Numbered from the stretch's first letter, positions 18,827 through 21,859 are shown. The stretch is DNA of 64,000 bases from Candidatus Dormibacter sp. (GCA_039922495.1 JBDTEO010000011.1:76439-140438), one strand, 5' to 3'. The notes: a model not told the origin generated them from the letters alone. Program-made: numbers and translations.

Positions 18827-19122
18827 CGCCGGCCGATCCGGGGATCACCTACGAGCAGGCGCTAGCTCAACTGGATAGCACCTTGCGAGCGCTCGAGGAA
18901 GGCAAGCTGAGCCTGGAAGATGCGATCGCCGCGGTCGCCCGCGGCCGCGAGTACCTTCAGCTCTGCGAGCAAAAGCTCAACGAGGCGCGGCAGCGGATCG
19001 AGAGCCTGCCGGTGCAGGAGCGCGCTGGTGATGACGAAGCGCCGCACCCGGCGACCGTGGCCCAGTTACGTGCCGGCCGCGAACCCACCCCCGGAACGCC
19101 GCAGGGAGAAATTCCCTTCTAG
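18823..19122 (+). CDS. xseB: Exodeoxyribonuclease VII small subunit
   Basis: TYEQALAQL...LEEGKLSLEDAI...CEQKL; ATGA overlap with xseA. Confidence 0.9.
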   Translation: MTPADPGITYEQALAQLDSTLRALEEGKLSLEDAIAAVARGREYLQLCEQKLNEARQRIESLPVQERAGDDEAPHPATVAQLRAGREPTPGTPQGEIPF

Positions 19123-19658
19123 GAGGTCGACCCTTCGGGCTCGTCGCTCCGCCGCTCGTGCTCGACTTCAGGTCGAGTGGGCGGCGTTTGGCCCTGTTTG
19201 AAGACGCCCCATTCTTGCAGCGACCGGCGCAGCATTTCCGGTGAGGTCTTGTAGGCGGCCGCCAGCTGTTCCAGGTCATCGCCCCGCAGGGTGACGACCC
19301 CGGTATTGAAATCATGCCGCTGCTGCTGGAGGCGGGCCACATGCCTGGCGAGGATCGAGCCCTGCCGTTCCGGCAGGCCCTGGAGCTGGTGCAGATCGAT
19401 GGCGAGCTTCGGCGGGAGGGCGGGCTCCAACAACGCATCCGTCTCCTCCGGCAGCAACTGGTTGACCGGCACGCTGTAGAGGGTGGCGATCTGGGCGAGC
19501 CGGGTCACCGAGATGTTGCGGTCGCCGCGCTCGTAGGCCGCCAGTAAGGAACCCTTGAGTCGCTTGTTGGAGAGGACCTCGACCTGTTGCAACGTCAATC
19601 CACGTTGCTTTCGAAGGCTCCTTAGCCTGGCTCCGACCTTTCGCGAATACCCGTCCAT
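19119..19658 (-). CDS. bldD: BldD-like XRE regulator with c-di-GMP-binding C-terminal domain
   Basis: GARLRSLR..GLTLQQVE, YERGDR, PKLAIDL, RHD-X8-RGDD, LQEWGV match recalled BldD architecture; AGGGGGA RBS. Confidence 0.85.
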   Translation of the reverse strand: MDGYSRKVGARLRSLRKQRGLTLQQVEVLSNKRLKGSLLAAYERGDRNISVTRLAQIATLYSVPVNQLLPEETDALLEPALPPKLAIDLHQLQGLPERQGSILARHVARLQQQRHDFNTGVVTLRGDDLEQLAAAYKTSPEMLRRSLQEWGVFKQGQTPPTRPEVEHERRSDEPEGSTS

Positions 19659-19785
19659 GTATCCCCCTTGACTGTGTGTGCTCAGTCTATCGCAGAACGC
19701 GATCTTGCACGAACGTGTTGGCTGCAGTCCGCCGGAAGGTGGTGGGGGGCTCGCCAATCGGGCGACACCACCATCCGTGGTCGCC

Positions 19786-19815
19786 ATTATGGAGGAGCTG
19801 TTTCCGCATTGTCAA
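19786..19815 (-). promoter_or_regulatory. Near-consensus sigma70 promoter of the bldD-like gene
   Basis: TTGACA-18 nt-CATAAT on the minus strand. Confidence 0.7.
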
Positions 19816-19818
19816 GTG

Positions 19819-21165
19819 CTACTTACTGCCAGAACGCTGAAGGCTTACAGGGTGGCCCGCCTCGTACGCTTGGCGAAACCGGGCGGAGGCCTGATGGGTA
19901 TCGCCTTCCTGTTCGAGCGCCCGCGCGTAGTCGTAGGCCACGCGGCCGCGCAGGTCCGGGCTGTCGATGCCGGCGGCGACCGCCAGCGCCTTCTCGAAGT
20001 GCCGGTGCGCAGGGGCGTACCGCCGTCGGGCGTGCTGTACCCGGGCGGCAATCCGATGGGTGGCGATGCTCGCGATCGGATCCGCTGATCGGGTAGCGAG
20101 GTCGAGGGCATCGTCAATCAGCGAGGTGGCTCGCTCCGGTGCACCCTGCTCGAGGGCGGCCTCCGCCATGCCGGCCACGAGCAGCGGTAACAGCTCGTGA
20201 TCGCCGACCCGCCGCAGTTGCGCCGCGCCCTCGCTGAAGATGGTCTCGGCTTCGGCCGCGCGCCCTTGCTGCAAGAGCATGTCCGCCATGTTGAGCCGGA
20301 GCTGGCCGGTCATCCTGACGTCCTGCAGGGTCTCGAAGATTCGCAGGCTCTTTTGCGCGTAGGAAAGGGCGCGCGGATACTGCCCGGTCTGCTGAAAGGA
20401 GAGCGCGAGGCCCTCGTAGATGCCGGCGAGGGCGGGCATGTCGAGAATCTGTTCGGCCGCCGCGATCGCCGCCTGATACGACGCGATCGCCTCTTCCGGC
20501 TGGCCGGCGACATAGGCCAGGTTGGCGCGGTGGCCGAGGATGCGCGCCTTGAGGACCGGGTCCGTCAGGCCGGCCTCCTGATAGAGGTCGAAGGCTCGAT
20601 CGAACCAGCGGCCCGCTTCGTGCGGCTGGCGCAACGCGTAGTAGGCGCGTCCGTGCCAGTCATACAACTCGACGAGGAGCGCCGGCGCGTTGGTTCGCTC
20701 CGCCACGGCAATCGCCTCGGCCAGCAGCGGCAGGGCGTCGGCAGCGTTGCCCCGCCGGATGTAGGCGCCGGCCAGGATGAGTTGGGCCCGGGTGCGGACC
20801 TGTTCCGGCACCTCGCGCGCCAGCACGGTTGCCATCAGGTGCTCGGCGCGCGCCGAGTCCCCCTGGTGCAAGCGAACCTCGGCCTCGGCGAGGGTCAACT
20901 CGATGGCGGCCGCCGACACCTCGGGACCCTCGAGAAAGTAGTCCACCGGCTGTTGGAGCCGGCGGGCGATGATCTGGAGCGTGTGGGTGGAAGGCTGGGC
21001 GCGACCGAGCTCGACCTGGTTGAGAAAGGCTCGGCTGAAGTCTTCACCCGCCACGGCGGCGAGACTGAGGCCAAGCTCCTGGCGGGCCTTTCGGATGCGC
21101 GAGCCCAGCGAGGCGGGTGCGGGAGCGTCCCGACGAGAACGCCCCCGCCGCTCAGTTGTAAGCAC
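19819..21165 (-). CDS. XRE HTH plus TPR-repeat regulator (RRNPP-like architecture)
   Basis: LGSRIRKARQELGLSL...FSRAFLNQVELGRAQPS HTH followed by about 8 TPR-like helical repeats; TAGACT -10 element 7 nt above the GTG. Confidence 0.88.
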   Translation of the reverse strand: MLTTERRGRSRRDAPAPASLGSRIRKARQELGLSLAAVAGEDFSRAFLNQVELGRAQPSTHTLQIIARRLQQPVDYFLEGPEVSAAAIELTLAEAEVRLHQGDSARAEHLMATVLAREVPEQVRTRAQLILAGAYIRRGNAADALPLLAEAIAVAERTNAPALLVELYDWHGRAYYALRQPHEAGRWFDRAFDLYQEAGLTDPVLKARILGHRANLAYVAGQPEEAIASYQAAIAAAEQILDMPALAGIYEGLALSFQQTGQYPRALSYAQKSLRIFETLQDVRMTGQLRLNMADMLLQQGRAAEAETIFSEGAAQLRRVGDHELLPLLVAGMAEAALEQGAPERATSLIDDALDLATRSADPIASIATHRIAARVQHARRRYAPAHRHFEKALAVAAGIDSPDLRGRVAYDYARALEQEGDTHQASARFRQAYEAGHPVSLQRSGSK

Positions 21166-21222
21166 CGCCTACAGTCTACCTGCTTCTGGTTGACAAGAAA
21201 AGCCGGTGTTCCGGTGCGGCCG

Positions 21223-21309
21223 CTACGGGTTTGGCCAGACGGTTTCGGCGCAGGCTACGATGGCAGAGGCGATGGCGAGCAGGACCCACGGGTTGAAGAA
21301 ACGCCGCAC
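21223..21309 (-). CDS. 28-aa secreted peptide precursor (putative signalling peptide)
   Basis: MRRFFNPWVLLAIASAIVACAETVWPNP; GGAGGT RBS with GGAGG 6 nt above the GTG; basic n-region, hydrophobic h-region and short polar tail. Confidence 0.75.
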   Translation of the reverse strand: MRRFFNPWVLLAIASAIVACAETVWPNP

Positions 21310-21389
21310 GGTGCACCTCCAGGACAGGCATGGATCGCGGTCGCCGAGCCGGTCCAAAACCAGCTTAGGAATGGGCCGAACGCGGCAGG

Positions 21390-21415
21390 GTGACATTCCG
21401 TAACGGATTTCGTAA
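21390..21415. promoter_or_regulatory. Candidate operator(s) upstream of the peptide gene
   Basis: GTGAC-ATTCC-GTAAC (BldD-box form), palindrome TCCGT-A-ACGGA and direct repeat ATTYCGTAA twice. Confidence 0.45.
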
Positions 21416-21476: not shown

Positions 21477-21550
21477 GTCCCCGTAGCTCAGCCTGGATAG
21501 AGCACTGGCCTCCGGAGCCAGGAGCACAGGTTCAAATCCTGTCGGGGACA
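21477..21550 (+). tRNA. tRNA-Arg(CCG)
   Basis: Acceptor GTCCCCG/CGGGGAC, anticodon loop CT-CCG-GA, GGTTCAAATCC; TATAAT at 21455; CCA not encoded. Confidence 0.95.
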
Positions 21551-21586
21551 CTTACCAAACAAGTTTTGAACCTTAGCGTGCGGGCG

Positions 21587-21859
21587 CTAGGCCGATCGCA
21601 TCTTCCGGGGTCTGCGCCAACGCGCACTTCGCCCGTCGGCGAATGACCCGGGACGTGTTTGTGCGGCCGCTCCTGCGCCTCCACCGTCTGGTTCTGTGCC
21701 GAACTTGCTGAAAATGCTCTGGAGGCGCGTCTTCACAGTATTCACGCTGAGGCGCGGCCGCTCGGCAATCTCCTTGATCGAACAGCCCTCCTCCGCGAGT
21801 GTGAGGACTCGTCGCTCGGCCGGAGTCAACATTCGATCGGGGTCAGATCGGCTGTTCAA
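21587..21859 (-). CDS. Stand-alone LuxR-type HTH protein, possibly degenerate
   Basis: LTPAERRVLTLAEEGCSIKEIAERPRLSVNTVKTRLQSIFSKFG. Confidence 0.6.
   Translation of the reverse strand: MNSRSDPDRMLTPAERRVLTLAEEGCSIKEIAERPRLSVNTVKTRLQSIFSKFGTEPDGGGAGAAAQTRPGSFADGRSARWRRPRKMRSA

Follow-up and report, generated by a model that had tools for sequence, protein, structure and literature searches.

RRNPP-type signalling is recognized in genomes by a propeptide of 10–100 amino acids, export of this propeptide via Sec and signal peptidase I (SPase I), a receptor of 250–500 amino acids, tetratricopeptide repeats (TPRs) in the receptor and adjacency of the two genes, as listed in the available part of PMC10075063. 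For NprR, the accessible part of PMC3763537 describes that the peptide is held via Asn194, Glu241, Asn275, Asn306 and other residues, and that Asn275 is located on helix 11 and conserved in the family; the corresponding backbone-binding residue of Rap3T is Asn226. Phr propeptides with internal repeats, including Phr3T and Phr105, are also known (PMC11343458, available part). In an HMM survey covering 13,513 complete bacterial genomes, RRNPP matches were reported from Firmicutes genera (PMC9765709, available part), and RRNPP_detector was, according to the accessible text of PMC10075063, run on Firmicutes only. A literature search covering main texts, with few subscription papers among them, revealed no description of an RRNPP-like system from the Dormibacterota, the Chloroflexota or the Actinomycetota; the terms RRNPP and Chloroflex co-occur in one paper, in unrelated references within its available part (PMC13118402). 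The literature compared also includes the accessible parts of 10.1101/2023.09.19.558401, 10.1101/2021.08.18.456871 and PMC13220807.

We analyzed a stretch of 64,000 nucleotides (the window) from a Candidatus Dormibacter sp. genome (G000), for which an initial annotation had claimed a cognate receptor/peptide pair in a lineage outside the Bacillota. This claim was supported by the conserved linkage of the two genes, the fold of the receptor and the presence of SPase I and Opp/Dpp genes, and we consider it highly probable that the locus encodes an NprR-like secreted-peptide/intracellular-receptor system of the Ca. Dormibacteria, the biochemical steps of which are worded below as predictions. The following features make up the locus:

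21401–21415, no strand assigned: imperfect palindrome TTACGRAWTYCGTTA, candidate receptor operator, ending 33 nt upstream of the -10-like hexamer.
21394–21388, minus strand: GTSACCC, 20 nt upstream of TAAGCT, conserved among the 30 loci compared.
21362–21367, minus strand: -10-like hexamer TAAGCT of the peptide promoter (TAAGCT at 29 of 30 loci, TAACGT at one).
21315–21320, minus strand: Shine-Dalgarno sequence GGAGGT, 5 nt ahead of the GTG, kept at all 30 loci displayed.
21223–21309, minus strand: propeptide gene, 28 amino acids, GTG start.
21226–21246, minus strand: predicted mature heptapeptide ETVWPNP, with the cleavage site placed by pattern.
21173–21195, minus strand: receptor promoter-like element TGTCAA-N12-TAGACT, with TAGACT 7 nt before the GTG.
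19819–21165, minus strand: receptor, 448 amino acids, XRE HTH (residues 20–79) and 18 helices forming nine TPR hairpins (residues 85–437), from Pfam and AlphaFold2.
19786–19815, minus strand: sigma-70 consensus promoter TTGACA-18-CATAAT of the bldD-like gene, conserved.
19119–19658, minus strand: BldD-like regulator (HTH and BldD-like_C) with intact RxD-X8-RxxD; NF050110 149 bits, which is below the cut-off of 250.
21477–21551, plus strand: tRNA-Arg(CCG), divergent, delimiting the locus on its upstream side in two genera and in two other genomes.

The small ORF opens with GTG at 21309 on the minus strand, comprises 28 codons and ends with TAG at 21223, and 57 nt separate its end from the receptor GTG at 21165. 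Reading the frame directly, we found the ORF and its GGAGGT ribosome-binding site as annotated, with GTG and not ATG as start codon (translation with an initiator Met yields the annotated peptide), and the claimed 57-bp distance to a co-oriented 448-residue XRE-HTH+TPR gene was confirmed by the coordinates and by HTH_3 and TPR matches. The ORF listing gives the same frame as a 57-residue ORF starting upstream at ATG 21396. The GTG start is preferred because the extension is without an RBS call and is either closed by stops or freely varying in the orthologues. For 26 orthologous ORFs from published genomes, we determined a pS of 0.47, a pN of 0.16 and a dN/dS of 0.24; these are pooled pairwise values among kin, the rows are not independent and the ratio is given without a p-value for this reason. 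Variation at the three codon positions amounted to 0.14/0.06/0.28, so that the second position varied least and the third most, and the pN/pS ratio, 0.35 in frame, was 1.04 and 2.66 when the frame was shifted (23 rows). All 26 ORFs keep their length (26–29 amino acids), the Shine-Dalgarno sequence and the position of the start, while the start codon alternates between GTG, ATG and TTG. The 28-residue ORF is coding and under selection at the protein level. Folding of its 5' leader was no better than that of shuffled sequences (z +1.66).

Residues 1–21 of the precursor follow the pattern of a Sec-type signal peptide ending A-C-A, and residues 22–28 form the predicted mature part. The basic N-terminus, the hydrophobic core (hydrophobicity 3.0) and the A-x-A site described in the initial annotation all fit by pattern, the last of them as A-C-A, and the proposed short tail stands out by conservation: W25 and P26 of ETVWPNP are invariant in 26 of 26 orthologues, as is the alanine preceding the tail (A21). 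The core of the peptide family can be written as [E/D/G]-x(0-1)-[V/I/A/L]-W-P-N.

Pfam places HTH_3 at receptor residues 24–77 and matches TPR_12 and other TPR models over the cut-off. When the receptor was modeled with AlphaFold2 on an 81-row alignment (pLDDT 92.7), the best structural match was apo RapI with a Z of 30.7 (rmsd 3.1 over 350 residues), and the eukaryotic protein LGN tied with it (Z 29.5–30.0). RapJ, phage Raps, RapF and apo NprR came next, and for apo NprR residues 83–438 of the model were superimposed on residues 67–418 of the chain (Z 26.7, rmsd 4.3, 346 residues). In this comparison with known receptors, the similarity of the model to Rap and NprR extends along the entire TPR domain. 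Foldseek ranked LGN first, and the fold alone does not single out the RRNPP family because the TPRs of LGN/Pins score as high as RapI. At the sequence level, the receptor profile matched PlcR (E 4.9e-14, positions 3–92) and RapH/I/J/F, and no NprR-specific model was present among the NCBIfam matches of the receptor. Searches of 1.84 billion proteins and of the Atlas, both of which lack gene context, indicate a large HTH-TPR family; the four matches in phage records did not cover more than the HTH, and none of six matches in the plasmid collection covered 80%.

Asn292 of the receptor sits on the eleventh helix of the TPR domain at an offset matching NprR Asn275, a correspondence drawn from residue ranges and not from a residue-level alignment. 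Conservation of this asparagine in the three receptor clades amounts to 95, 100 and 79%. An asparagine at this TPR position also belongs to the generic TPR consensus.

Comparison with the described systems yielded the following picture. NprR-NprX of the Bacillus cereus group shares with our locus an HTH plus nine-TPR receptor of similar length, the TPR domain of which can be aligned end to end, an adjacent small propeptide and a mature peptide of about seven residues (export and processing being predicted here), and an asparagine on helix 11 that is the probable counterpart of Asn275. However, the host is a member of the Ca. Dormibacteria, identity on the structural alignment is 13%, and the peptide gene is located upstream, with a Trp-Pro-based tail directly following the signal peptide; in addition, the KRD motif with Arg126 of NprR was not located in the Dormibacter receptor. 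Rap-Phr systems share the best structural match and the precursors with repeated signals, which we also found for a paralogue with four repeats (see below), but Rap proteins lack an HTH and act on response regulators, whereas the Dormibacter receptor carries an XRE HTH and is accompanied by a candidate operator. PlcR-PapR has in common the HTH-TPR transcription factor and a palindromic box before the peptide gene, and in PlcR this box gives positive feedback. PlcR differs by its size (about 290 residues), fewer TPRs and another peptide and box. LGN/Pins (GPSM2) reach an equal structural score and bind extended peptides in their groove, but they are eukaryotic scaffolds without an HTH or a linked propeptide. 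Four of the five genomic RRNPP features are found at the locus (28 residues, 448 residues, TPRs, 57 nt adjacency) and Sec export by pattern, and we therefore describe the pair, as judged from sequence, as RRNPP-like rather than as a proven member.

Most of the named proteins closest to the receptor carry the label Ca. Dormiibacterota or Chloroflexi, and a few carry other labels. In the NCBI taxonomy, Ca. Dormiibacterota form a phylum of their own, separate from the Bacillota; in the genome taxonomy of the search tool the class is placed inside the Chloroflexota. At 41 of the 43 loci of the receptor's clade, an upstream ORF with a signal-peptide pattern carries an xWP(N) tail (the search was for a hydrophobic ORF bearing xWP, and four loci from unpublished genomes were left out of the count). 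Thus, the expected conserved short ORF with a Trp-containing tail beside homologous receptors is present, the two loci without it being L040 and the frameshifted L046.

For a class-wide count, we applied a fixed rule for small ORFs (RBS, basic N-terminus, hydrophobic core, 20–100 residues), the thresholds of which were chosen after the peptides had been seen. The rule gave a call at 68 of 84 receptor loci, compared with 9 of 478 intergenic gaps (150–700 nt) of the genome, and one of these nine gaps is the third receptor's own divergent peptide. In an earlier control on genes encoding at least 300 residues, 6 of 1174 were positive, this receptor being one of them. Dropped before the 84-locus count were L004 (a long protein with TPRs only), L030 (a peptide-bearing locus with short upstream DNA), L046, L086 (no upstream DNA) and four unpublished loci; L061, found later by HMM and with a peptide, is likewise outside the count. 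Inspection of the 16 loci missed by the rule revealed an evident precursor at seven (L002, L038, L039, L044, L053, L079, L089), which raised the number to 75 of 84. Peptide genes are placed upstream and co-oriented, divergently, or downstream of the receptor gene, an arrangement that fits a product acting in trans.

The genome carries two further full-length receptor homologues. The closer one (G000:C5, 58% identity) is preceded by a precursor of about 98 residues with a signal-peptide pattern and four VIWPN repeats, and ten further multi-repeat precursors with 2–4 WPN copies and variable spacers and tails were found (11 aligned in total). The distant one (G000:C11, 29% identity, 10 kb outside the window) has a divergent 26-residue ORF ending DTLSGGH. 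Directly after this distant paralogue (G000:C11:64323-65330, L003) follows a gene read by eye as receiver plus HD-GYP-like, which is a possible second link to c-di-GMP.

We placed 102 receptors in a tree by a quick IQ-TREE run, with SH-aLRT as the sole support measure and long-branch warnings for the deep joins. Three groups were recovered with an SH-aLRT of 100 each: a WP clade (37 rows), a divergent clade (19 rows) with tails such as DSLPGPR and DTLSGGH, and a third group (27 rows) with tails such as DGIPPGW and DGSPSGW, several of them ending CC. In all clades, an alanine is followed by D, E, G or S and a short tail. Genome G000 itself holds receptors of different clades with the tails ETVWPNP, 4x VIWPN and DTLSGGH, and since single genomes hold several clades with different tails, the tails follow the receptor and not the host; this association is descriptive, as kin share labels. 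WP is not private to the WP clade, since two peptides of the divergent clade end EIWPGR and DIWPGPR. Close to N292, positions 212 (H/N), 251 (E/M), 290 (R/L) and 371 (R/A) are fixed within and differ between the WP and the divergent clade, and fold and conservation suggest that these clade-specific candidate groove residues may read W-P. The precursors of the third group that end with vicinal cysteines (e.g., DGVGPCCS) are L057, L058, L059, L060, L065, L056 and L177; Cys-Cys tails are unusual for RRNPP peptides and could be subject to redox or metal control. L064 and L056 each have another HTH-TPR gene, which lies next to the peptide in divergent orientation.

The best-surviving alternative is that the small ORF encodes a real and regulated secreted product, or a target of the regulator, which is not its ligand, and that the TPR domain senses a protein or a metabolite. 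TPR grooves bind many partners, as the tie of LGN with RapI illustrates, and many homologous HTH-TPR genes lack a peptide call. This applies to 9 of the 84 class loci (L040, L052, L062, L063, L066, L067, L069, L070, L071), of which L066, L067, L069, L070 and part of L063 were scored as blank by the fixed rule and the others also by inspection. Outside the class, 46 of 151 genomes of the phylum match the receptor profile at 1e-40, and 14 of 20 receptor-like loci were without a precursor-like ORF; among the six loci with such an ORF is L177, the receptor of which falls inside the Dormibacteria group in the tree, perhaps owing to misbinning or transfer. None of the three Bacillota homologues examined gave a peptide call; full-length HTH-TPR proteins of the Bacillota match the profile at 187 and 178 bits. 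On the other hand, a different tail of 5–10 residues stays with each receptor clade in three gene arrangements, the short tail alone is conserved and it is this same part that gets duplicated, and the candidate groove residues are constant within and different between clades. Orphan receptors could moreover read a sister peptide, as for L040, the genome of which has a WP precursor at L033. Taken together, a product that is not the ligand appears unlikely. The Dormibacteria also have another family of HTH proteins with a short TPR part, about 205 residues in length (L147–L170), and the fixed rule gave no peptide call at any of its 24 loci.

SPase I is encoded in the genome, as are nine SBP_bac_5 proteins, and two gene sets of the Opp/Dpp type include ATPases. 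SPase I is a common gene, and so is Opp, which is present in 11 of 14 control genomes. Cys20 of the precursor is kept in 24 of 26 orthologues, and together with the loose lipobox I-V-A-C and the presence of lgt and lspA in the genome it could suggest a lipopeptide processed at this cysteine by Lgt/LspA, or an uncleaved single-helix membrane protein. When we compared 20 lipoproteins of the genome picked by pattern, position -2 was A/S/T/G in 20 of 20 and G or S occupied position +2 in 19 of 20. The equivalent residues of the peptide family are V/L/M (-2) and A (+2). Moreover, the cysteine is missing in five single-peptide orthologues (L016, L021, L031–L033) and in the multi-repeat and divergent-clade precursors, and such precursors still show the alanine followed by D/E/G/S. 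An invariant cysteine with a small residue at -2, as expected for Sec/SPase II substrates, is thus not a property of the family, and we consider processing at Cys20 or retention in the membrane very unlikely.

W-x-N and repeated W-P-R are cyclophane motifs. The invariant Trp-Pro and the repeated cores would therefore also be compatible with a RiPP precursor cross-linked at W-x-N by a radical SAM or P450 enzyme encoded elsewhere, and the distant paralogue weakly matches NCBIfam TPR proteins of cyclophane RiPP clusters (52/300 and 32/1125 bits, far below the cut-off). Against this, there is no modifying enzyme among the 20 proteins scanned between 10846 and 30168 or the ten scanned at the paralogous locus, the precursor begins with a hydrophobic export signal instead of a leader, and the tails of the other clades are unrelated, so that a RiPP origin appears extremely unlikely.

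The receptor gene has its own promoter-like element and is without a Shine-Dalgarno sequence, and since TAGACT lies 7 nt before the GTG, its transcript is likely leaderless. TGTCAA (21190-21195, minus strand), 11-12 nt upstream of TAGACT, is conserved in the family; this is not a general promoter spacing in the genome. A cis-acting leader or ribosome-arrest peptide (W...P-stop) controlling the receptor gene would agree with an ORF that is co-oriented, lies 41–57 nt upstream and ends W-P-N-P-stop, but it is scarcely credible in view of the receptor's own conserved promoter-like element and apparently leaderless transcript, of equivalent ORFs with a divergent orientation in the second clade and a downstream position in some other classes, and of the paralogues, in which the motif occurs internally and in several copies.

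Upstream of the peptide gene, 30 loci have TTACGRAWTYCGTTAC, GTSACCC and TAAGCT in common, three of them with a variant box, and a promoter scan detected neither a consensus -35 nor a consensus promoter before this gene. The exact box pattern occurs in 29 of 38 published family genomes (32 of 41 when G003, G004 and G027 are counted), the reversed-pattern control gave 0, and the box was found in 0 of 23 genomes of other families, in which no WP-clade receptor was found. At 11 of 17 re-scanned loci no box was present within the DNA scanned; orphan-type and variant loci differ. In a matrix scan of the genome, the two top sites were the peptide promoter and C5:15257, at a distance of 2 kb on the upstream side of the closer paralogue. 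Two weaker sites (20.7 bits) precede an unassigned small gene and a gene read by eye as YjbQ-like. The box near the paralogue recurs in G016, G018, G028 and G034 and is located downstream in G009. At this paralogous locus it precedes the gene of a secreted 485-residue protein without Pfam match, which fronts the repeat precursor and is arranged back to back with genes for an OmpR-type regulator, a NusG paralogue, a SIS isomerase, a GHMP kinase, a sugar transferase and an epimerase; the layout of gene and box recurs in G016, G028 and G034 and, by position, in G018. At this locus (G000:C5:13695-25600, L246), the 485-residue protein has a Pro/Thr linker, and a polysaccharide or heptose cluster is nearby. 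Single boxes precede the gene of a nucleotide-sugar epimerase in G007 and that of a secreted phosphoesterase in G023.

From this co-occurrence we infer that the receptor probably reads the palindrome; the box is a family-level motif and could also belong to another regulator. The OmpR-type regulator was rejected as obligatory reader, since orthologues of at least 85% identity are present in 7 of 38 published family genomes compared with 29 of 38 for the box; other OmpR-type proteins are conceivable readers. Reading the peptide promoter as a BldD box was discarded because the spacer varies between 4 and 5 nt. The promoter of the divergent clade has an inverted repeat overlapping the -35.

For the receptor/peptide system, which we prefer over the alternatives set out above, the following sequence of events may be envisaged. 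The 28-residue precursor would be exported by Sec and cut by SPase I after A-C-A, so that ETVWPNP or a trimmed form would be released outside. This peptide might re-enter through an Opp/Dpp permease and bind in the groove of the nine-TPR domain, where fold and conservation suggest that N292 holds the peptide backbone, and binding may then switch the HTH dimer on the palindrome. Activation is the most likely logic because the box is in an activator position before a promoter without -35. Provided that the system exists as described, we rate peptide-dependent activation with positive feedback on the peptide gene at slightly better than even chances. A few export-related targets would also be activated, among them the secreted protein upstream of the four-repeat precursor beside the polysaccharide cluster, and in single relatives the nucleotide-sugar epimerase and the secreted phosphoesterase. 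The label quorum sensing is here an interpretation by analogy and from the genomic signature.

Compared with the described systems, the apparently new elements at the sequence level are a WP clade in which single and repeated precursors share their signal, a candidate operator for which likely targets can be named, and a fixed link to a BldD homologue. If the conserved and diversified set in the Ca. Dormibacteria is what it seems to be, it would move RRNPP-mode signalling to a second deep lineage, bear on the question of where the family arose and offer a starting point for the study of social behaviour in a soil group that is abundant and uncultured. The system can be tested without culture using a 448-residue protein, a 7-residue peptide and a 15-bp box, and the paralogues of other specificity constitute built-in controls. 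On a wider scale, the Dormibacteria, together with scattered cases in other classes, might run their own multi-channel intracellular peptide language. In the family studied here, two loci would share the signal xWPN and the operator, a single-copy pair beside a c-di-GMP-type BldD homologue and a patchy 2-4-copy pair beside a polysaccharide cluster, which would couple density to matrix production and to a BldD-type developmental/dormancy switch. We offer this scenario tentatively and consider it rather doubtful as a whole.

The bldD-like gene follows the receptor gene in 34 of 34 single-peptide loci with enough downstream DNA (this set includes loci not filtered for unpublished genomes), and it may be regarded as a linked neighbour of the receptor. 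Its product is a BldD-like regulator outside the Actinomycetota and is 79–94% identical across most of the family. Having its own consensus promoter, the gene is independent of read-through, and direct control by the receptor is unsupported because the genome matrix scan found no box before it. A conserved inverted repeat GACTG-N8-CAGTC, which may be an autoregulatory site of the bldD-like gene, overlaps a second TAGACT hexamer before its Shine-Dalgarno sequence. The leader between the two promoter-like elements of this gene (19700-19780, minus strand) is conserved and contains a hairpin, is absent in L032 and L033, has no Rfam match and folded no better than shuffled sequences (z -1.0); a CCCCCC run in it is complementary to the Shine-Dalgarno sequence GGGGGAT in many orthologues. 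At the other end of the locus, the tRNA was the sole match of the Rfam scan. Beyond it lies a 90-residue ORF with a LuxR/sigma-r4-type HTH (21587-21859, minus strand), possibly a remnant, and the DNA on this side differs among relatives, as expected of an integration site.
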